Source of the DNA: Abditibacteriota bacterium
GTDB lineage: Bacteria; Armatimonadota; UBA5829
Assembly: GCA_017552965.1 (NCBI GenBank)
Contig: JAFZNQ010000117.1
Span: 1,319 to 65,318 of the forward strand
Length of the DNA stretch: 64,000 nt
Reading direction: 5' to 3'
This document shows positions 21,189 through 32,294 of the stretch, piece after piece (position 1 is the first letter of the stretch; each line of letters starts with the position of its first letter). The notes under the pieces are model-generated. The model did no database searches. It saw only the letters and a program-made list of their open reading frames with translations, and was not told the DNA's origin. The position numbers and the translations under genes are program-made.

Positions 21189-22661
21189 ATGAAAGACATC
21201 AAGGGAAAAGCCAAATCCGGCTTTTTATACAAGTTTGCGGAAAGAGCGGGAGCTCAGGGCACCAGTTTCGTCATATCCATGATCCTGGCCCGCCTGCTGC
21301 TGCCCGAAGAATACGGTATAGTGGCCATGGTGCTGGTCTTCATCAGCATCTGCGACGTGTTTGTGGCCAGCGGCTTCGGCAAGTCGCTGATCGCCAACAA
21401 GAATTCGGACTATCTGGACTTCAGCACCTGCCTGTGGTTCAGCCTGGGGCTCAGCGTGGTCATATACACCCTCGTCTGGTTTTCCGCGCCCCTTATCGCC
21501 GCCTTTTATCATGAGAGCATGCTGGTGCCCGTGGTCAGGGTCATGGCTCTCAGACTGCCCGTGACCAGCCTGGCCTGCGTGCAGGAATCCTATACCTCCA
21601 AGAACATGTTGTTCCGCAAGTTCTTCTTTTCCACCCTTACGGGCACCCTTGCCTCCGGCGTCATATCCATCACCATGGCCTATATGGGCTGCGGCATATG
21701 GGCTCTCGTGGCCCAGAATATCTCCAGAGAGGTGATCAACGCTCTGGTGCTGTGGATCATAGTGGGCTGGAGGCCCCGGGCCGTGTTTTCCTTCGCGAGG
21801 CTGAAAAAGATATACGACTTCGGCTGGAAGATACTGGTCATAGGCCTCATAGACACCATCCACAGCCAGCTGCGGAACCTGATCATAGGCAAGCGCTACA
21901 CCGCCGAGGACCTGGCCTTTTACAGCAAGGGGCATCAGTTCCCCCACACGGGCATCATGTTCATAGAGCCCACCATCAGCGGCGTGCTGTTTCCCGCCCT
22001 GTCCCAGGTGCAGGACGACAAGGACCAGATGAGGGATATCACCCGGCGCATCACCCGGGTGTCCAGCTACGTGGTCTTTCCCGTGATGCTGGGCCTGGCT
22101 GCCATGGCGGAGCCCCTTATCCGGGTGATACTCACGGACAAGTGGCTGGAAAGCGCCGTGTATCTGCAGATCACCTGTCTGGCCCTTCTGTTCCGCCCCC
22201 TGCAGTTCGTCAACAACAGCGTCATCATGGCCAGCGGCAACAGCGCTCTCCTTCTGAAGCTGGACATCCTGAAAAAGGCGGTCAGCATCCTGCTGCTGGG
22301 CGTCAGTATGTTTTTCGGCGTCATCTGGGTGGCCTGGAGCCTGGTGGGGGCGAACCTCTTCGCCGCCCTGGTCAACATAGCCCCCAACAGAAAGATACTG
22401 GCCTACGGCTACATAGACCAGTTCGGAGACGTGTGCCGGAGCCTCTTTATGGCCCTTGTGATGGGCGGCTGCATGAGGCTGATACTCTTTGCCGGCCTTG
22501 CCGGCTGGCAGACCCTGCTGCTGCAGGCCTTCTGCGGGGTGGGGATCTATATGCTGCTTACCCGGCTTTTCCGGGAAGACAGCCTCGCCTATATCATCAA
22601 GACTCTGGGCGACCTGGCCCGGGGCAAACGGACCGGCAGGGAAAAGGGAGAAGAAATATGA
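21189..22661 (+). CDS. polysaccharide biosynthesis / oligosaccharide flippase family protein (Wzx-like, MOP superfamily)
   Basis: About 12-14 predicted TM helices and an N-terminal region typical of Wzx/PST exporters. Confidence 0.65.
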   Translation: MKDIKGKAKSGFLYKFAERAGAQGTSFVISMILARLLLPEEYGIVAMVLVFISICDVFVASGFGKSLIANKNSDYLDFSTCLWFSLGLSVVIYTLVWFSAPLIAAFYHESMLVPVVRVMALRLPVTSLACVQESYTSKNMLFRKFFFSTLTGTLASGVISITMAYMGCGIWALVAQNISREVINALVLWIIVGWRPRAVFSFARLKKIYDFGWKILVIGLIDTIHSQLRNLIIGKRYTAEDLAFYSKGHQFPHTGIMFIEPTISGVLFPALSQVQDDKDQMRDITRRITRVSSYVVFPVMLGLAAMAEPLIRVILTDKWLESAVYLQITCLALLFRPLQFVNNSVIMASGNSALLLKLDILKKAVSILLLGVSMFFGVIWVAWSLVGANLFAALVNIAPNRKILAYGYIDQFGDVCRSLFMALVMGGCMRLILFAGLAGWQTLLLQAFCGVGIYMLLTRLFREDSLAYIIKTLGDLARGKRTGREKGEEI

Positions 22662-24730
22662 GCTTTGACACCAAAGACGCGGCAGCCCTCTACAGAGAGG
22701 CGCGCAGCCTCTCGGAGAGGCTCGGGCAGGTCAGGCAGGAGGAAGCAAAGGCCCGGCAGGCCATAGTTTCCGCCGCGGAAAAAGCCATCAAGCCCGAGAT
22801 AGAACAGGGTCTGAGGGATACCCCGGTGACGGCCCTGCAGGATGAGGTGGTCGGCTGGAAGCCGGAGCTGCTCCCCGACAGATACACCAATTATCAGGAG
22901 CTGAAGCGGGACATGGCAGGCTCACTGAAGATGTATCTGAAGCCGGAGCCCCTGGCTGCCGTGAAAAAAGCGGTGGAGGACAAGGAGCGGGAGCTGCGGG
23001 GACGGGCTGTCCCCCGGATAGACGCGGAGAAAAAGGACCCGATGTCGGCGCTGCTGATGATGGCGGCTGTGAACTACTACAACGACCGGGCGCTCTTTGA
23101 CAGCATCAGGGATTTTGACGCCCGGCACCCGGACCTTGACCGGCTCACGGAAGAGCTGAAGCCCCTTGCCGGTTTCTTTGGGCGCCTCTTTGCCTCCGGA
23201 GACAAAAAGAAGAAGGCTCTGGCGGCCGGGGAGGCTCTGTCCGGCATGGTGCAGGAGTGGAAGGAACCCCGGAGCTCCAAAAACGTCTTGTCGGCCCAGA
23301 AGGCCTGGGAGATATACGAGAAAAACAGCATAGCGATATTCGGCATGCTGGAGCGGCTGCTGCCGGACCTGTTCACCGTCAGTGAAGAAGCCGGCGAGGT
23401 GTACGGCCTGCCCGAAGAGCTTGCCGAAGCGATAGCCTGCGAAGACCTGAGTCTCGAGGGTCTGGAGTGCACTCTCAGGACATATCAGGAGTGGGGCGTC
23501 AGGTATATCCTCAGGCAAAAAAGGACCCTGCTGGGAGACGAGATGGGCCTGGGCAAGACCGTGCAGGCCATAGCCGCCATGGTGTCCGTGCGCAACAGCG
23601 GCGGCTGTCATTTTCTGGTGATATGCCCGGCGGCGGTCATAGCCAACTGGACCAGAGAGATAGAAAAGTTTTCGGACATCACCGCCTACCGTATCCACGG
23701 GGCCGGCAAGGAGGAGACCATCAAAAAGTGGCGCAGCGACGGCGGCTGCGCGGTCATGAGCTACGAGGGGACCGAGATATTCACCGACGGGGACAGGACC
23801 CAGATAGACCTGCTGGTGGCGGACGAAGCCCACTACATCAAGAATCCCGAGGCCCAGCGGACTCAGCGGGCCGCAAAGCTGGCCCGCCGCGCCGGCAGGG
23901 TGCTGTTTATGACCGGCACCCCTCTGGAAAACAAGCGGGAGGAGATGGTCAGCATCATCGATATGCTGCAGCCCGAGGTCAGCCGGAGCCTCCGGCGCCC
24001 CATGTCTCCCCGGGAGTTCCGGGAAGCCGTGATACCCGTGTATTACAGGCGCAAGAGAGAGCAGGTGCTGGGAGAGCTGCCGGAGCTGACGGACGCCAAG
24101 TCCTGGGATGATATGAATCCCGAGGATACGGAGGCCTACAAGAGGGCTCTTGCCGGCGGGAACTTCCACGACGTGAGGCGTGTTTCCTGGATAACGGAGG
24201 ACATGACCCGGTCCTCCAAGGCTCAAAGGCTTCAGGAGATCATAGAGAATGCCCGGGCCCAGCAGCGGAAGCTGATAGTCTTTTCCTGCTATCTCAAGAC
24301 TCTGGAAAGGGTGACGGCCCTGCCCGGCGTGGATTTTATGCCCGCCATCACGGGCTCTCTGCCTCCACAGAAGCGGCAGGCTATCATAGACGACTTTGAA
24401 AAGGCTCCCGCGGGGACCGTGCTCCCTGCCCAGATACAGGCGGGAGGGACCGGCCTCAACATACAGGCTGCCAGCGTGGTGGTGCTGTGCGAGCCCCAGC
24501 TGAAGCCCTCCATAGAAAACCAGGCCATCTCCAGAGCCTACCGCATGGGCCAGACCCGCAACGTGCTGGTGTACCGCCTGCTGTGCGAGGACACCATTGA
24601 CGAGCAGATACTGGACCTGCTCAAGGAAAAACAAAATATATTCGATCAGGTGGCGGACGTGTCCGAGGCTGCCGGCAAGGACCCTCAGATGGTGAGTCTG
24701 CTGAAAGCCGAGCAGGAACGCTACGCCTGA
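22658..24730 (+). CDS. SNF2-family (DEAD-like) helicase/ATPase with about 280-aa coiled-coil-rich N-terminal region
   Basis: LGDEMGLGKTVQAIA (motif I), LLVADEAHYIKN (motif II), FMTGTPLEN, GGTGLN.Q.AS.V; ATG overlaps the Wzx stop (ATGA). The track ORF 21698-24730 is an upstream over-extension. Confidence 0.7.
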   Translation: MSFDTKDAAALYREARSLSERLGQVRQEEAKARQAIVSAAEKAIKPEIEQGLRDTPVTALQDEVVGWKPELLPDRYTNYQELKRDMAGSLKMYLKPEPLAAVKKAVEDKERELRGRAVPRIDAEKKDPMSALLMMAAVNYYNDRALFDSIRDFDARHPDLDRLTEELKPLAGFFGRLFASGDKKKKALAAGEALSGMVQEWKEPRSSKNVLSAQKAWEIYEKNSIAIFGMLERLLPDLFTVSEEAGEVYGLPEELAEAIACEDLSLEGLECTLRTYQEWGVRYILRQKRTLLGDEMGLGKTVQAIAAMVSVRNSGGCHFLVICPAAVIANWTREIEKFSDITAYRIHGAGKEETIKKWRSDGGCAVMSYEGTEIFTDGDRTQIDLLVADEAHYIKNPEAQRTQRAAKLARRAGRVLFMTGTPLENKREEMVSIIDMLQPEVSRSLRRPMSPREFREAVIPVYYRRKREQVLGELPELTDAKSWDDMNPEDTEAYKRALAGGNFHDVRRVSWITEDMTRSSKAQRLQEIIENARAQQRKLIVFSCYLKTLERVTALPGVDFMPAITGSLPPQKRQAIIDDFEKAPAGTVLPAQIQAGGTGLNIQAASVVVLCEPQLKPSIENQAISRAYRMGQTRNVLVYRLLCEDTIDEQILDLLKEKQNIFDQVADVSEAAGKDPQMVSLLKAEQERYA

Positions 24731-24746
24731 TATACGGAGGAAAGAT

Positions 24747-25841
24747 ATGCGTTATTTGACCCTATGCGCGCTGGTCGCGCTGTGCCTTGGGGCCTGTTGC
24801 TTTGCCCAGGATGGAGACAGATTTGCCGATGACACCGTGTGGTACGACGCGGCAAAGGCTCCCATGACTCTTTGCGGAGTGCTGGCTCCCACGGAAAAGG
24901 AGCCCTATTACCACCGGCTGCCCGCAGAGGTCGCCGAGAGCACTTCCGAGGCAGTGGCCCGGCTGAGCTGCCAGACGGCGGGAGGCAGGGTGCGTTTTTA
25001 TACGGACTCGCCCTACATCACCATCCACGCCTCCTTTTGGGTCTGCGACCCCCTCCTGAATCTCACCCAGATATCCTCCGCCGGCTTTGGCATATACACC
25101 CAAAAGGGCCGGGGCCCCGAAAAGTACCTGGCCAAGGTGGTGGCCGGCATGGGGCATTATGACGACAACGAATGGACCGTGTATCTCTCGGGAGAGGGGG
25201 AGACGGTCACCATATACCTGCCTCTCTACGGAGGCGTCAGAGACCTCTCTGTGGGAGTCAAGACGGGCTCTCTGGTCCGGGAGGCTCCGGGGTACCGCAT
25301 AGACAAGCCGGTGGTATTCTACGGCTCCTCCATCACCCAGGGCGGGTGCGCCACCCGTCCCGGCAACAGCTATCAGGGCATGATGGCCCGCTCCATGAGT
25401 ATGGACTACGTCAATCTGGGCTTTTCCGGAGCAGGCAAGGGCGAGCAGTCCATGGCGAATTATATAGCGGGGCTGGAGCTGAGCGCCTTTGTGCTGGACT
25501 ACGACCACAATGCCCCCACTCCGGAGCACCTGCGGGCCACCCACTACAACTTTTATGAGACCGTGCGCCGGCAGCATCCCGACGCGCCCATCCTCATGGT
25601 GTCCCGGCCGGTCATTGACCCTTCTCCCGAAGAGGTCGAAAGAAGGAACATCATCAGAGAGTCCTGGCAGAAGGCCAGGCTGGCCGGCGACAAAAACGTG
25701 TATTTCATAGACGGCTCCAAATTCATGACGGGCTACGCGGCGGACTGCTGGTCCGTGGACGGCTCCCATCCCAACGAGCTGGGCTTTTCGCTGATGGCAC
25801 GGGCCATGGAAAAGGTGCTGAAGCCCGCTCTGAAAAAATAG
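24747..25841 (+). CDS. SGNH/GDSL-family hydrolase, secreted (paralog 1)
   Basis: Signal peptide; VVFYGSSITQGGCATRPGNSYQG block and D.DHN catalytic region. Confidence 0.55.
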   Translation: MRYLTLCALVALCLGACCFAQDGDRFADDTVWYDAAKAPMTLCGVLAPTEKEPYYHRLPAEVAESTSEAVARLSCQTAGGRVRFYTDSPYITIHASFWVCDPLLNLTQISSAGFGIYTQKGRGPEKYLAKVVAGMGHYDDNEWTVYLSGEGETVTIYLPLYGGVRDLSVGVKTGSLVREAPGYRIDKPVVFYGSSITQGGCATRPGNSYQGMMARSMSMDYVNLGFSGAGKGEQSMANYIAGLELSAFVLDYDHNAPTPEHLRATHYNFYETVRRQHPDAPILMVSRPVIDPSPEEVERRNIIRESWQKARLAGDKNVYFIDGSKFMTGYAADCWSVDGSHPNELGFSLMARAMEKVLKPALKK

Positions 25842-25857
25842 ACACCGGAGGAACTGT

Positions 25858-26961
25858 ATGCTGCATCTCTTTTTGATATCCCTTATGACTCTGGCCCTGG
25901 CCTCTGTTTGCCGGGCCGTCCGATACGAGTCCTCCGTCCTGAAGGAGGACATAGATTGGTATGACGCCACGGAGAGCCCCATGACCCTTTGCGGTGTGCT
26001 GCCCCCTGACGACAAGGAAGATTATTACCACAGGATGCCGCTGGAGGTGGCCCGCAAGGCCTCCGAGGACGTGGTGAGCATGTGCCGGCAGACTGCCGGA
26101 GGCAGAGTGCGCCTTGTGACGGATTCGCCCTTTGTGGCGATCCATGCGGACCTGTGGCACAATTATCAGTATCCCAATCTCACCCACATTGCCTCCGCCG
26201 GCTTTGGCATATACGCCGGAGAGACAAAGGAGGAATACGCCGGCGTGGCTGTTGCCCCCATAGACAACAACGAGGGCAACGACTGGCAGGTGCCCCTGCC
26301 CGCCGGGACCAAAAGAGTCACCGTGTGCATGCCTCTCTACGGAGGAGTGAAGACCCTGTATATAGGCGTCCGGCGGGGCTCCCTGCTGAAGAAGGCTCCC
26401 CGGTACCGGTATGACAAGCCGGTGGTGTTTTACGGCTCCTCCATCACCCAGGGCGGGTGCGCCTCCCGCCCCGGCAACAGCTATCAGGGCATGATGTCTC
26501 TGTCCATGGATATGAATTACGTCAATCTGGGCTTCTCCGGCTGCGGCAGGGGAGAGCAGTGCGTGGCGGAGTATATCGCCGGGCTGGACATGAGCGCCTT
26601 TGTGCTGGACTATGACCACAACGCCCACACCCCCGAGCACCTGCGGGCCACCCACTATCCCTTTTTTGAAACGGTGCGCCGCAGACATCCGGAGCTGCCC
26701 GTCATCATGGTGTCCCGGCCGGTCCTCAGACCCACTGCCGAAGAGCTGGAGAGGATAGCCATCATCCGGGAGTCCTGCTGCAGGGCCCGTCTGGGCGGCG
26801 ACAACAACGTGTATTTTGTGGACGGCTCCTGCTTTATGAGAGGCTATGCGGCGGACGCCTGGTCCGTGGACGGCTGTCACCCCAACGATCTGGGCTTTGC
26901 GCAGATGGCGCAGGTGCTGGAAAACGTCCTGAGGCTGGTCCTGAAGCCGGACGGCGCATAG
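25858..26961 (+). CDS. SGNH/GDSL-family hydrolase, secreted (paralog 2)
   Basis: Co-linear with the upstream paralog (same VVFYGSSITQGGCASRPGNSYQG, FVLDYDHNA motifs). Confidence 0.55.
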   Translation: MLHLFLISLMTLALASVCRAVRYESSVLKEDIDWYDATESPMTLCGVLPPDDKEDYYHRMPLEVARKASEDVVSMCRQTAGGRVRLVTDSPFVAIHADLWHNYQYPNLTHIASAGFGIYAGETKEEYAGVAVAPIDNNEGNDWQVPLPAGTKRVTVCMPLYGGVKTLYIGVRRGSLLKKAPRYRYDKPVVFYGSSITQGGCASRPGNSYQGMMSLSMDMNYVNLGFSGCGRGEQCVAEYIAGLDMSAFVLDYDHNAHTPEHLRATHYPFFETVRRRHPELPVIMVSRPVLRPTAEELERIAIIRESCCRARLGGDNNVYFVDGSCFMRGYAADAWSVDGCHPNDLGFAQMAQVLENVLRLVLKPDGA

Positions 26962-28369: not shown

Positions 28370-28395
28370 GCGGCGGGAATACCCGCCGTTTTTTT
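28370..28395 (+). terminator. rho-independent terminator
   Basis: gcggcggg-aata-cccgccg followed by TTTTTTT. Confidence 0.65.
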
Positions 28396-28477: not shown

Positions 28478-28508
28478 TTGAAAGGGGCGCTTTTGATGTG
28501 TTATAATA
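28478..28508 (+). promoter_or_regulatory. sigma-70 promoter for the NERD/helicase cassette
   Basis: TTGAAA-17 nt-(t)TATAAT, about 28 nt before RBS GGAG and ATG 28537. Confidence 0.55.
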
Positions 28509-28536
28509 TATCTATCAAATACAGGACGGAGACCCT

Positions 28537-30513
28537 ATGGCAAGAATAATCAGCGACAAACCCCTCGAATATATTCACCCTGACCTCAATTCTGCAGAAG
28601 GCCTTATTCTTGACGTGTTGTCCCGGCTTCCTGGCGATTATGCCGTCATTACCCCCGACGCTGTCAAATGGTCTTATTTCGGAAAAGAAACAACGGGCGA
28701 AAGAGTATTTGTTCTGCTGCACCTGTCCGGAAGCATGCTGCTGATTTACCCTTCGGGCCTGAAAAGCGCCGAGTTCCGATCCAATGCCTGGCATGCAGGA
28801 GAGGATGCTCCTGCCGGCGCCGACAAAGCCATAAGCAAAGCAGAAAAACATCTGAAAACGATCCGCGACTCATTTGCCAGCAAACTTTCCGGCAGCAACG
28901 CCGAAAAAAATCTGCTTGCAGAGCGGATCCACATGTGCATATGGTTCCCCTTTGCGGATAGTATCGATTACGCCGAGAACCACACGGCAGGCATCAGGCT
29001 TTTGTGCGGCGCCGAATACGCAGGGATCAGTAAATATATAGATGAACATACACGGAAAAGAGCAAACAGCTATCCCTTATTCCTTTCCCGCTGGAATGCC
29101 CTTGCGTCTGCAATATGCCTGGAGGGGGCAGCTGAGTCGAACAAGGCTTTTGAACAATATGTTGATAAGCTGAAAAGGTTTCGGGCGTCGTCGTTGGACA
29201 ACTTCACCGGGACAAAGTCTTTCGCTGTATGCGGCGGAGATGATTCCGGCAGGGAAGAGTTTGCCGCTGCGCTCATAGGCAGTATGGAGCACCCGCTTCT
29301 CGTATCCCGGGGAGAGCCTTCCTTTGACCGGGGCAGCGCCCTGGTCTGCTCTATGGAGCAGGCGCTTGACGCTGCAGAGAAGTGCGATATATTGGTATGG
29401 AACGCCGGTGATTATACCCCGGATGACCTTCGGAAGCTGAAGGACAAGCCGGATCGGGGTATTTTTGCAGTCTTTTATTCTGCCGGCAGTCCGGCTGCCC
29501 GGTGGGCCGACGGCTGTGAGGATCTGTGTCACCTGACCTTTGCGGAGCCGCTGGCCTGCAACCGATCGATATTGCGGACGGCAAACAGCCTTTATCCAGC
29601 CGACAGAGAGCTCCTTTGGAACACGGAGGAAGGACAGAAGCCCAAGCTGCACCTGCTTACCCGCGCGGTTACCGGAGCCCTGTCTGCCGATGACAAGCGT
29701 GCAGCGGAATACAGGATCGTCGAAATACTCCAAAAGCATAAATATGCCACTGGGGACAGCGCGGCTGTTGTCCGTATGTCAATGAGCGGACAGGCGGCAG
29801 GAGGCGGTATGTCCTTTATGTATCGGTCGCAGGAAAACGGTGAGGAGACCCGGATCCCTGTCATTTCCCCTGACGCTAAGGACCGGTATGAATGCGTGAT
29901 CCTCACTGACGTGAGACCGGAGCACTTTGAGGGAGAAAGCCCTCTGCTGTCCCGGGCGACGCTGCGGGGCCTGAGGTTCGTCCATATGATCATGCTGCTG
30001 ACGGAGGCAGAACAAAAGGAGCTGTTTGCCAAATATGGGGGCAGCCCCGGTGCCTTCCGTGGTGCAATGGAGGAGCAATACGGAATACAAACTTATACGA
30101 GCAGCGGCTGGCTGAAGGATAATGATCTGATTAACAGCGCAGGGATCATATACGGCGATTTCAAAAAAGGTGACGCTGCGCTGGCCGAGAAGATCCTCGA
30201 TCTCAGGAATGAGCCCGGCGGAGAGCTCACCGTCTTTGTGCTGAATCCGCGCCGCGAAGCCTTGATAGAAAAACTGAAGAAACATGGGATAAGCGCAATT
30301 GCGTGGAAGGATATAGAGGACAGGCTGGAGAAAGGCGGGCAGCTGAAGCATGTGGCGATCACCGACTTTTCGCCGGTCACTCTGCAAAAGCCTGAAAACG
30401 GTCATATTCTCTTTTCCCTTTTCCGACGGGCCTACAAAGCGTTCCTGCTGTCGGACCGGCAGCATAAAAGAGAGCTTGATGCCCTGTGGGAGCCTGAAGG
30501 AGCAGAAAGATGA
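28537..30513 (+). CDS. NERD-like plus SF1-helicase-like protein with degenerate nuclease and ATPase motifs (inactivated paralog of the downstream gene)
   Basis: N-terminus co-linear with a NERD domain but the E-x-K position reads LLIYPSG; Walker A position reads AVCGGDDSGREEF and Walker B reads ILVWNAGDY, versus GGAGTGKT / IIDEAQDF in the downstream paralog. Confidence 0.5.
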   Translation: MARIISDKPLEYIHPDLNSAEGLILDVLSRLPGDYAVITPDAVKWSYFGKETTGERVFVLLHLSGSMLLIYPSGLKSAEFRSNAWHAGEDAPAGADKAISKAEKHLKTIRDSFASKLSGSNAEKNLLAERIHMCIWFPFADSIDYAENHTAGIRLLCGAEYAGISKYIDEHTRKRANSYPLFLSRWNALASAICLEGAAESNKAFEQYVDKLKRFRASSLDNFTGTKSFAVCGGDDSGREEFAAALIGSMEHPLLVSRGEPSFDRGSALVCSMEQALDAAEKCDILVWNAGDYTPDDLRKLKDKPDRGIFAVFYSAGSPAARWADGCEDLCHLTFAEPLACNRSILRTANSLYPADRELLWNTEEGQKPKLHLLTRAVTGALSADDKRAAEYRIVEILQKHKYATGDSAAVVRMSMSGQAAGGGMSFMYRSQENGEETRIPVISPDAKDRYECVILTDVRPEHFEGESPLLSRATLRGLRFVHMIMLLTEAEQKELFAKYGGSPGAFRGAMEEQYGIQTYTSSGWLKDNDLINSAGIIYGDFKKGDAALAEKILDLRNEPGGELTVFVLNPRREALIEKLKKHGISAIAWKDIEDRLEKGGQLKHVAITDFSPVTLQKPENGHILFSLFRRAYKAFLLSDRQHKRELDALWEPEGAER

Positions 30514-32231
30514 AAGAATGCGATCTCGTTTCAAATCTGGATTTTAACAAAAGCCGTGCCGAAGAACTGCTGTTCTATGCTTTCAAGAATGACGTTGCCG
30601 ACAGGGGCTGGTTTATCGTTCACTCTCTTCTCCTGAAGGAGGGCGAGTCGGATTTTCTCATTCTGGATAAGGATATGGGCATACTGCTTGTCGAGACCAA
30701 GTCGGGCTGCTACCACTCGAGAGACGGCAAGATCTTCTGCGCAAATGACAGAGACACCATAGATCCACTGGAGCAGCTGGACAGATGCAAAAGGTCTGTG
30801 GGATCGTATCTGAAAGGGCTGAGAAAGCATAATATCATAGGCGAAAACGAAAAGGTGGAGATCCACCGCTGCGTGTGGATGCCGGACTCAGAGCCCCTGA
30901 CAGACATTGACGAAGGTGGCGCTGTCTGGATGTATATGCCTTTGCTTGATTATAACCCCCGCAAAAGCAACGATATCCGTCGCAAAGCAGTTGGCGATCA
31001 AAAAGTGCAGTTTGAGTTATATGACAGGTGGCGAAAATTGGTGACACCCGGGGGGACCTGTCTGTCGGAGGAATCCTTTGAAACGCTGAAAAGGAAGTTC
31101 AACCCCCATCGTTTGGTAGGACAAAGCGCAAACTGGATACGGAAGAGAAAGACATCGGTGTCTGAGGATCTGTGCCGCAGTCAGAATGCCTTGCTGGGTA
31201 TGCTTGCGCATCAACGGAAGGCTATAGTTGAGGGCGGCGCCGGCACGGGCAAGACCGTGCTGGCTCTGGAAAAGGCATACCGGCTGGCATACGGCGGCGC
31301 TGAAGGCAGTGTGACCTATATTTGCTATAACGATTTGCTCAGGCAAAATCTGTCCGAGACGTTTTACAAAGAACGGGATCCGGACAGAAGAGTCCGCTTT
31401 GTTAATCTGTTTACAAAATACGGCGTTGATTATACAAATTGCGCTAATCCGCAGGAAGAGGTCGCAAAGGAGATCAGAGCGCTCGGGGACCGGTGCGATC
31501 TGTGCAACGTGATCATTGACGAAGCCCAGGACTTCGGACAGGATGTGCTGCAGGCTCTCTTTGACGCCTCGGACGCAGCCGGCGGCGCCTTTTATGTGTT
31601 TTGTGATCTCAAGCAGTGCGTCCATAAGGACAGTCCCGCTGCCTGGCTGAAGGATGAGCATCCCGGAATGCCCCGGATCACCCTGAGCCGCAATCTGCGG
31701 AATACCCGAGAAATTGCCGTGTCCGTCGCCGGCCCTGTCGGTCTTCCGGACGCCTACTGCAACACCAGTCTCAGCGGGCCCAAGCCCAGAGTGTGGCTCT
31801 CCGCTCCGGCGGACAGGTTTGATCTGGCAGGCAAGATAATAGCCAATTACAAGGCGGAGGGCGTCGATACGGACACGGTGATCCTGACCGTGATGGGAAT
31901 AGGGAGTTTAAGGTATAAATATAACGAAGAAAGATTTATCAGAGTGGGAGAAATAAAGCTTCTCCCGGACAACGAGGACAAGAATAAGGTGAGTTGTTTT
32001 TCGGCTAAGGACATATTGTTTACCACTGCCCGCAAATACAAGGGCCTCGAAGCCAATCATGTGATAGTCATAGACCTGGACGGCCATTTTCTCGATGACG
32101 ACGAACTGACTTATACTGCCGCGTCCCGTTCCTGTATGTATCTGGACGTGATCCTGTCCTCAAGGAGCATGGATACCGGGCTCCTTGAAAAGGCTGTGAA
32201 AAAGCTGAATATGGAGCCCGGCAGTTTATGA
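30510..32231 (+). CDS. NERD-domain nuclease fused to a UvrD-like SF1 helicase/ATPase
   Basis: NERD motif ESDFLILDKDMGILLVETKSG (D...E.K); Walker A EGGAGTGKTVLALEKA; Walker B CNVIIDEAQDF; UvrD_C-like tail (VIVIDLD...TAASRSCMYLDVIL); ATGA overlap with the upstream gene. Confidence 0.65.
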   Translation: MKECDLVSNLDFNKSRAEELLFYAFKNDVADRGWFIVHSLLLKEGESDFLILDKDMGILLVETKSGCYHSRDGKIFCANDRDTIDPLEQLDRCKRSVGSYLKGLRKHNIIGENEKVEIHRCVWMPDSEPLTDIDEGGAVWMYMPLLDYNPRKSNDIRRKAVGDQKVQFELYDRWRKLVTPGGTCLSEESFETLKRKFNPHRLVGQSANWIRKRKTSVSEDLCRSQNALLGMLAHQRKAIVEGGAGTGKTVLALEKAYRLAYGGAEGSVTYICYNDLLRQNLSETFYKERDPDRRVRFVNLFTKYGVDYTNCANPQEEVAKEIRALGDRCDLCNVIIDEAQDFGQDVLQALFDASDAAGGAFYVFCDLKQCVHKDSPAAWLKDEHPGMPRITLSRNLRNTREIAVSVAGPVGLPDAYCNTSLSGPKPRVWLSAPADRFDLAGKIIANYKAEGVDTDTVILTVMGIGSLRYKYNEERFIRVGEIKLLPDNEDKNKVSCFSAKDILFTTARKYKGLEANHVIVIDLDGHFLDDDELTYTAASRSCMYLDVILSSRSMDTGLLEKAVKKLNMEPGSL

Positions 32232-32247
32232 CGCGCAAAAACACACA

Positions 32248-32276
32248 GGCGGAGCCGCGAGGCTCCGCCTTTTTCT
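32248..32276. terminator. bidirectional rho-independent terminator
   Basis: ggcggagcc-gcga-ggctccgcc followed by TTTTTCT. Confidence 0.7.
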
Positions 32277-32294
32277 CTTGTTTGCTTTCGGCTG

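Follow-up and report, generated by a model that had tools for sequence, protein, structure and literature searches.

Why would a gene whose catalytic motifs are gone be kept directly in front of a fully equipped relative? The question is raised by a two-gene cassette in a stretch of 64,000 nucleotides from an Abditibacteriota bacterium (assembly GCA_017552965.1, contig JAFZNQ010000117.1, positions 1,319 to 65,318 of the forward strand), here called the window. The cassette consists of two called open reading frames (ORFs) on the + strand, gene A (28537-30513, 658 amino acids) and gene B (30510-32231, 573 amino acids), which overlap by the four nucleotides ATGA. We read the pair as an operon for a two-subunit helicase-nuclease that is probably defensive, with the dead paralog as a regulatory or recognition subunit, and we put the probability of this reading at about 0.5. 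An earlier interpretation, referred to here as the sequence-only reading, had proposed a similar arrangement.

An intact nuclease-helicase and its dead paralog

Motif and family analysis confirms that B combines a predicted NERD PD-(D/E)xK nuclease with a superfamily 1 (SF1) DUF2075/UvrD-like helicase, and that the catalytic motifs of both are complete. The Pfam NERD model (PF08378) matches residues 16-107 (E 3.5e-9, 37.6 bits against a cutoff of 22.1), a domain encoded at 30555-30830 (+) that contains E18, D48, and E62-x-K64. The helicase core, residues 221-548 (31170-32153, +), contains a Q motif, Walker A (GGAGTGKT), motif Ia, DEAQD, and motifs III-VI. B matches the SLFN-g3_helicase/DUF2075 family (PF09848) with 28.9 bits (cutoff 24) and lies slightly under the Pfam cutoff for UvrD_C_2 (26.4 versus 27.4 bits). 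All invariant positions in an alignment of 30 family members are retained in B. These are E18, D48, and E62-x-K64 in the nuclease; Q225, GGAGTGKT, C272/N274, and D337-E338-A-Q340-D341 in the first half of the helicase; and F364/D366/Q369, N395/R397/N398/T399, K511-G512-x-E514, and Y535/R540 in the second half. The sequence-only reading had called the downstream gene an intact NERD domain with a UvrD-like SF1 helicase, and the Pfam matches and the alignment bear this out. The nearest solved relatives of the B family profile in the PDB are HelD (E 1.8e-26), PcrA, SLFN11/5, UvrD, and GajB.

Gene A has no match of its own in Pfam, NCBIfam, or PHROG, and nothing significant in the PDB either by sequence or by profile. 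BLASTP finds weak, colinear matches between A and B (E 0.004 and 0.088). Alignment of the A family with the B family by hhalign has a probability of 99.05% (E 2.1e-18, 454 columns) and covers residues 1-478 of A and 3-544 of B, from the first residue to motif VI; the negative control, an unrelated neighbor protein of 861 amino acids, reaches a probability of 0.2-0.3% against either profile. A hidden Markov model (HMM) of the A family was searched against 108 collected proteins, and its top five matches other than A itself are the three partner B proteins and the two nearest B relatives (E 2e-10 to 8e-7). Because the partner B clade and its nearest relatives rank first, A probably originated within B's own subclade, and the comparisons fit a tandem duplication of a B-like gene. 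The N-terminus of the A ortholog at locus L001 matches the PADLOC NERD-helicase model (E 4.6e-5).

The residues that correspond to the nuclease triad of B (D48, E62, and K64) are V57, Y71, and S73 in A. Walker A is CGGDDSGR in A versus GGAGTGKT in B, Walker B is LVWNAGDY (WNAGD) versus IIDEAQDF (DEAQD), motif III is FYSAGS versus FCDLKQ, and motif IV is PLACN versus NLRNT; motif Ia (CYN in B) is absent. The sole survivors of the catalytic motifs are the motif VI arginine (R477) and the glutamate of the NERD N-terminal helix (E21). The A orthologs at L001 and L002 have the same losses, so all three known A lineages are degenerate. The description of A in the sequence-only reading, as a colinear paralog mutated at the nuclease, Walker A, and Walker B positions, therefore survives profile alignment, in which these motifs remain lost. 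We consider it confirmed at the level of motifs and profiles that A is a colinear B homolog that keeps the folds and is predicted to be catalytically dead, with its nuclease and ATPase motifs both lost.

Three regions can be distinguished in A. Residues 1-140 (28537-28956, +) are predicted to adopt a NERD-like restriction-endonuclease fold without the D/E/K residues, and residues 226-490 (29212-30006, +) appear from hhalign and the motif comparison to be degenerate RecA-like 1A and 2A domains with no P-loop. Residues 491-658 (30007-30510, +) make up an extra domain that is not in B and was missed by the sequence-only reading: two helices followed by a five-stranded alpha/beta, RecA-like fold. 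Invariant positions make up 23% of the NERD-like domain and 24% of the 2A-like domain versus 7% of the linker and C-terminal domain, which are the fastest-evolving parts of the protein.

The A reading frame is open in all three lineages (634-658 amino acids) despite saturated synonymous sites, and the blocks WFP, LYP, ECxIxT, and LRGxRFVH persist among them. Over 580 codons the proportion of nonsynonymous differences (pN) is 0.45, versus 0.73 for synonymous differences (pS). The AlphaFold2 (AF2) model of A has a pLDDT (predicted local distance difference test) of 79.5, and its fold matches in the PDB are the SF1 helicases SLFN14/11, nsp13, HelD, and RecD. Because the ORF is intact, pN is lower than pS, conservation is structured by domain, and the predicted fold is confident, we conclude from these comparisons that A is under purifying selection and is a functional gene, not a relic.

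Linkage, fixed position and allele age

Genes like A are extremely rare. HMMER, run exhaustively against 1.84 billion representative proteins, recovers three real A relatives; the fourth match, P0105, is spurious, a eukaryote-like BED-finger repeat protein. A k-mer-indexed homolog search returns only A itself. Pattern scans find one locus among the GTDB species representatives, a second in metagenome contigs, and no match in viral contigs and plasmids. The hosts are exclusively metagenome-assembled genomes (MAGs) of rumen Abditibacteriota, with related contigs from yak-rumen and other metagenome assemblies. The complete A-B loci are L001, L002 (the same as L005), L012, and the window (the same as L014 and L015); L002 and L012 come from one species. 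In every complete locus A lies directly 5′ of the B ortholog and overlaps or abuts it.

Distant relatives of B (24-28% identity) have no A. Two genes upstream of such relatives were considered and rejected: the 654-amino acid gene upstream of P0006 (locus L003), as an A homolog, is an unrelated DrmB/MZB protein, and the 861-amino acid gene upstream of P0012 (locus L008), as a cryptic dead paralog, has an hhalign probability of 0.2-0.3%. The sequence-only reading had suggested that the dead paralog is retained as an obligate partner. The co-occurrence of A and B in three complete lineages, with the A frame open and pN below pS, supports this suggestion, and the pair is co-inherited.

The cassette occupies the same syntenic position in all lineages seen, convergent with an ortholog of a GH42-like (glycoside hydrolase family 42) gene near a block with CTP-transferase, Sua5, PrmC, and GyrA genes. 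Its two genes are the most divergent of the block, and A diverges fastest. Between the window and the L001 genome, seven flanking orthologs have 52-87% protein identity, B has 40%, and A has 25%. In the comparison of L012 with L001, 85-92% of flanking nucleotides are identical and the cassette is not alignable as DNA; the encoded proteins are 34-35% (A) and 43-46% (B) identical. Over the comparisons, identity ranges from 52 to 91% for neighbors, from 40 to 46% for B, and from 25 to 35% for A.

Synonymous divergence (dS) reaches 2.6 in A and 1.7 in B (both saturated), versus 0.30-0.57 in the flanks. Between the window and locus L017, dS is 0.83 for the C-terminus of B versus 0.34 for the glycoside hydrolase gene. 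Accelerated protein evolution at the locus would not increase dS, so the cassette alleles are older than the genome around them. This pattern suggests either that recombination in the flanks replaced both genes as one unit or that a polymorphism has persisted for a long time. Both are usual at loci where conflict drives diversifying selection.

The cassette is also compositionally distinct. Its G+C content at third codon positions (GC3) is 0.60-0.62 in the window versus 0.75-0.82 in all nine neighbors, and it forms the lowest-GC 3.7-kb stretch of the 64 kb. Low cassette GC3 recurs in L001 and is weaker in L012, so that it is clear in two of the three lineages.

Within one species, between L002 and L012, the order of cassette and flank dS is the reverse of the between-species pattern: the cassette has a dS of 0.009-0.018, lower than the 0.06 of an adjacent gene for 498 amino acids, and these values come from small counts. 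Locus L017 (1-1011; GCA_017616345.1, JAFZYH010000082.1), from a close relative, holds a fragment of a class I/II aminotransferase gene whose reading frame runs on into B residues 358-573. The fusion ORF lies upstream of a GH42-like gene whose protein is 91% identical to that of the window, and the junction falls at a common GGAFYVF / CCGGCGGCGC..TTTTA.GTGTTTTG microhomology. Such a junction could stem from a genuine loss of A together with the 5′ part of B, or from chimeric metagenome assembly.

The pair is an operon: expression signals read in the window frame a single transcription unit placed, as the sequence-only reading had it, between a GGDEF cyclase gene and a glycoside hydrolase gene, with its own promoter and bracketing terminators. 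A consensus scan finds a sigma-70-like promoter with an extended TG (TTGAAA-18-TATAAT, 28478-28507, +, 11/12 consensus matches). Equivalent TTGAAA-17-TATAAT sites (11/12 matches) lie 5′ of A at L001 6047-6075 and L012 3871-3899, and in both of these other lineages the promoter-like site is 30-60 nt from A. A GGAG ribosome-binding site (28528-28531, +) lies 5 nt 5′ of the A start codon. B has its own AAGGAG Shine-Dalgarno sequence (30497-30502, +) within the 3′ end of A, 7 nt 5′ of the B start; with the ATGA overlap, the two genes are translationally coupled. A bidirectional terminator from the consensus scan (32247-32270, or 32247-32279 as an annotated element; both strands; a 10-bp stem with eight GC pairs and T-runs on both strands) is common to B and the convergent GH42-like gene. 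The upstream GGDEF gene is closed by an intrinsic-terminator-like hairpin (28370-28395, +) with the 8-bp stem GCGGCGGG/CCCGCCGT, the loop AATA, and then T7; this hairpin is a direct reading of the sequence and is absent from the consensus-scan list.

We examined about 7 kb on one side of the cassette and 5 kb on the other. Upstream are genes for the GGDEF cyclase, two SGNH esterases, a SNF2 helicase, and a polysaccharide biosynthesis protein. Downstream are the gene for the GH42-like hydrolase (1100 amino acids), convergent with B, and then cytidylyltransferase, Sua5, and PrmC genes. The esterases (24747-25841 and 25858-26961, +) are tandem paralogs of the GxDLY/SGNH type (Lipase_GDSL_3), each with a signal-peptide-like N-terminus. 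The 674-amino acid SNF2 helicase (22706-24727, +), 4 kb upstream of the cassette, has near-full-length PADLOC matches to DpdE (E 4e-113) and DrmD (E 6e-109). No further Dpd or DISARM genes lie close to it, it is missing from the upstream flanks of L001 and L012, and it is probably unrelated to the cassette. A listed ORF of 1010 amino acids (21698-24730, +) is an artefact whose first ~335 codons overlap the Polysacc_synt_3 gene (21189-22661) in another frame; the true SNF2 gene starts near 22706 or slightly upstream, where a 690-amino acid gene call in L014 begins. L001 (9973-11613, -) and L012 (7671-9239, -) have a BspA-type LRR_5 gene between B and the GH42-like gene that is not in the window. 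The LRR_5 gene has low GC3 (0.62), and its ratio of nonsynonymous to synonymous divergence (dN/dS), 0.42, is the highest among the flanking genes.

A possible defence role and its alternatives

The top PADLOC model for B in the window is PDLC03813, "RTasNERD-Hel" (E 5.3e-24, residues 15-403), and the B orthologs of L001 and L002 match it over the full length (E 6e-30 and 3e-36). This model goes back to a predicted UG34 reverse-transcriptase-associated cluster (cluster 485) with no experimental validation (PMC9226505). No UG34 reverse transcriptase gene is present beside the cassette in the examined parts of the window, in L001, or in L002. A of the window matches no PADLOC model.

More distant members of the B family occur in recognizable defence loci. 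P0006, P0009, and P0012 (24-28% identity to B) adjoin DrmA and DrmB (PADLOC E down to 1e-218), and their loci also hold genes for Dcm, Vsr, or a MutH-like type II restriction endonuclease, which makes them class-2 DISARM-like. These DrmA/DrmB loci with a NERD-SF1 helicase are at L003 1034-12573, L008 3402-13064, and L006 251-8754, and in them the NERD-helicase apparently occupies the position of DrmC, a PLD (phospholipase D) nuclease. P0007 is flanked by a DpdF/Cas3-like helicase and a type I restriction-modification system. Relatives of B are found on ten plasmid records and one phage record, and many are solo genes. A solo NERD-helicase 26.6% identical to B is on the Selenomonas ruminantium plasmid pSRC1, a rumen megaplasmid (L016 7959-16632), followed in order by genes for an AAA ATPase, a metallophosphoesterase, a DUF2779 protein, and a transposase; this gene group may be a small defence islet. 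NERD nucleases recur as effectors in BREX type 2 and Dnd systems (PMC12839542, PMC10853773).

A defence role for A-B is plausible because relatives of B occur in DISARM-like, restriction-modification, and UG34 reverse-transcriptase-associated loci, PADLOC models match, the alleles are older than their flanks, and the GC3 is anomalous. Several results weigh against it. No integrase, tRNA gene, or direct or inverted flanking repeat surrounds the cassette, where there are only chance-level repeats and the terminator, and no defence island or other hallmark of a mobile element is near it in the window. Clean presence/absence polymorphism between strains, which the sequence-only reading had proposed as a check, does not appear: a search via the orthologs of the glycoside hydrolase found no empty site, and each lineage with that ortholog has at least B at the same site. 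This result goes part of the way toward the universally conserved pair that the sequence-only reading had named as evidence against its own proposal. The lack of any PADLOC model match for A counts here as well. Low GC3 could stem from low expression instead of foreign origin. Between L002 and L012 there are four synonymous and five nonsynonymous substitutions in A, and seven and two in B, too few to gauge selection. Finally, the family is known only from three to four uncultured MAG lineages. The case for a defence candidate, as first put forward, is thus circumstantial, with B-family contexts, allele age, and GC3 on one side and the lack of an island and of presence/absence polymorphism on the other.

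In the two-subunit model, catalysis would fall to B, in which an N-terminal NERD endonuclease is joined to an SF1 translocase powered by ATP. A would derive from a duplicated B-like gene that lost its nuclease and ATPase chemistry, kept the folds, and gained a variable RecA-like C-terminal domain. The two proteins may form an A:B complex, probably via the well-conserved pseudo-NERD and 2A-like domains. Labor would then be divided between them, with A restraining or directing the nuclease of B until a nucleic-acid or invader cue is sensed, the part that RecC has beside RecB, AddB beside AddA, and ERCC1 beside XPF. The variable C-terminal domain of A is a candidate recognition surface. Such a complex would most likely protect the cell from phage or other mobile DNA, in the manner of the Nhi/NERD-helicase type.

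A bolder version of this model, which we hold tentatively and at less than even odds, would make A-B the first known case of a previously undescribed defence architecture, in which the pseudo-enzyme paralog of a nuclease-helicase effector gates that effector. An invader cue, such as a protein, a DNA structure, or a nucleotide, would be sensed by the hypervariable third RecA-like domain of A and by the cleft between its domains, which is retained but non-catalytic. Populations would maintain divergent sensor/effector alleles and exchange them as whole units at one fixed site in the chromosome.

Other explanations account for part of the evidence. The pair could be a clade-specific housekeeping enzyme for DNA repair or end processing, an AddAB/RecBCD-like heterodimer built of NERD-SF1 parts and kept vertically. 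The constant position beside housekeeping genes in all lineages, the lack of mobile-element hallmarks, and the resemblance to a known repair-enzyme design (RecBC, AddAB) would all be expected of such an enzyme, and B does sit at the same site in every lineage with the glycoside hydrolase ortholog. However, with three real relatives of A in 1.84e9 proteins and one locus among the GTDB representatives, the pair is not phylum-wide, and a dS of 3-8 times that of the flanks in the most divergent genes of the block is unexpected for housekeeping genes. The GC3 anomaly and the lack of any significant match to RecB, AddA, or RecD models also count against this explanation, which we regard as unlikely. 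It is more improbable still that B works alone as a single-gene Nhi-like nuclease-helicase and that A is a decaying, functionless duplicate. Every catalytic motif is gone from A, no family model matches it, it is the fastest-diverging gene of the block, and many B relatives are solo, as decay would predict. Decay is hard to reconcile with an ORF of 634-658 amino acids intact in three lineages despite saturated synonymous divergence, with a pN (0.45) lower than pS (0.73), with conserved blocks and conservation that is uneven by domain, or with translational coupling and a promoter 5′ of A kept in all lineages; the confident predicted fold of A also argues for a maintained protein.

The cassette might instead be a selfish addiction module of the toxin-antitoxin type, in which B would be a DNA-damaging toxin, A its dead-paralog antidote, and post-segregational killing the means of persistence. 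Gene order and overlap couple the synthesis of A to that of B, the alleles appear to be exchanged as a unit, older than their flanks and anomalous in composition, and one Nhi homolog was toxic upon expression (bioRxiv 10.1101/776245). Yet both proteins are very large for a toxin-antitoxin pair, many B relatives have no A-like partner, and the full helicase-like scaffold and variable extra domain of A suggest recognition, not plain inhibition. This idea also overlaps with the defence model, since many defence systems are toxin-antitoxin-like; as a separate explanation we give it little weight. Least probable, and to our minds quite doubtful, is that A-B acts on RNA or transcription complexes in the manner of HelD or Schlafen proteins and not on DNA. 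HelD is the closest solved relative of B by sequence (E 1.8e-26), SLFN11/5 match as well, the model of A matches SLFN14/11 and HelD, and the NERD-domain protein ZwsA is reported to cleave RNA phage genomes (bioRxiv 10.64898/2026.04.06.716636). But these matches are to the generic SF1 core, PcrA and UvrD match nearly as well, neither a HelD N-terminal domain nor a Schlafen RNase domain turned up, and the NCBIfam HelD model gives 18.2 bits against a cutoff of 419.

If the gated-effector version of the defence model is true, A-B would parallel, within an immune system, the transition from RecB to RecC. If the two-subunit model is right, the route taken by RecBCD, AddAB, and XPF-ERCC1, in which a helicase-nuclease is duplicated and one copy is inactivated to yield a regulatory or recognition subunit, has been taken within Nhi/NERD-helicase immune enzymes too. 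With just two proteins, the pair would then be a small system in which to study how a dangerous nuclease-helicase is licensed by a pseudo-enzyme. Allele replacement at this fixed locus would likewise give a clear example of old polymorphism or of exchanged cassettes in a rumen phylum that is uncultured. With a family of three to four MAG lineages, the practical reach is limited.

Comparison with known systems

RTasNERD-Hel (PDLC03813; also PADLOC C3a187, "NERD+UvrD") has the domain order of B, an N-terminal NERD domain and a C-terminal SF1 helicase. The cassette differs from it in having no reverse transcriptase nearby and in having a dead paralog as partner, which is not reported for RTasNERD-Hel.

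Nhi is a validated single-gene anti-phage enzyme that combines PD-(D/E)xK and DUF2075 domains and requires both activities (bioRxiv 10.1101/776245). Like B, Nhi (SERP2475) has an N-terminal PD-(D/E)xK nuclease and a DUF2075 (PF09848) SF1 helicase on one polypeptide. Unlike B, it is a single gene without a dead-paralog partner, and its nuclease is described as HsdR-like rather than NERD; B is preceded by an overlapping or abutting A in three complete loci. The PADLOC Nhi model (PDLC02372) matches B of the window with E 6.5e-5, its best stretch covering only residues 235-259 around Walker A, and matches the B orthologs with E 2.6e-8 and 1.5e-7 at partial coverage.

Class 2 DISARM is linked to the family through P0006, P0009, and P0012, which adjoin DrmA/DrmB with Dcm or Vsr. 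The DrmA/DrmB core is absent beside the cassette in the window, L001, L002, and L012, and DrmE and the methyltransferase are likewise absent at the A-B loci. Hachiman (HamA/HamB) and Gabija (GajA/GajB) are two-gene defence complexes of a nuclease and a helicase, with one subunit holding back or licensing the nuclease (PMC12278908). They place nuclease and helicase on separate, unrelated proteins, whereas here both activities are predicted on B and the partner is an inactivated paralog. Matches of GajB to B are local (E 6e-4 or weaker), and there is no OLD/TOPRIM gene nearby. The similarity of B to HelD in the PDB is confined to the SF1 core.

The closest mechanistic analogy is RecBCD/AddAB, in which an active SF1 helicase-nuclease is paired with an inactive paralog. 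RecC and AddB are paralogous subunits whose helicase folds are retained but inactive (in RecC the nuclease as well) and which serve in DNA-sequence recognition and regulation. In these enzymes the nuclease is C-terminal and not N-terminal as in B, and they are housekeeping proteins, broadly conserved and slowly evolving, unlike the A-B pair, which is confined to one small clade and is hyper-divergent. A search for RecB, AddA, RecC, or AddB membership in NCBIfam finds only recD for B (E 0.043) and nothing for A.

XPF-ERCC1, Mus81-Eme1, and FANCM-FAAP24 derive from archaeal Hef, from a homodimer to a heterodimer of paralogs with complementary catalytic loss. By analogy, A-B may have taken the same evolutionary route, in which the non-catalytic subunit targets or regulates the other. 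These are eukaryotic repair proteins of the superfamily 2 (SF2)/ERCC4 group, so the likeness is one of analogy only. The sequence-only reading had not seen such a sensor/effector split described; RecB/RecC, AddA/AddB, and XPF/ERCC1 are established examples of an active helicase-nuclease paired with a dead paralog, and we found nothing specific in the literature on a NERD/DUF2075 helicase with an inactive paralog as partner. An active enzyme with a dead paralog is a known principle, and what is new is its appearance in the NERD-SF1 (Nhi-like) family.

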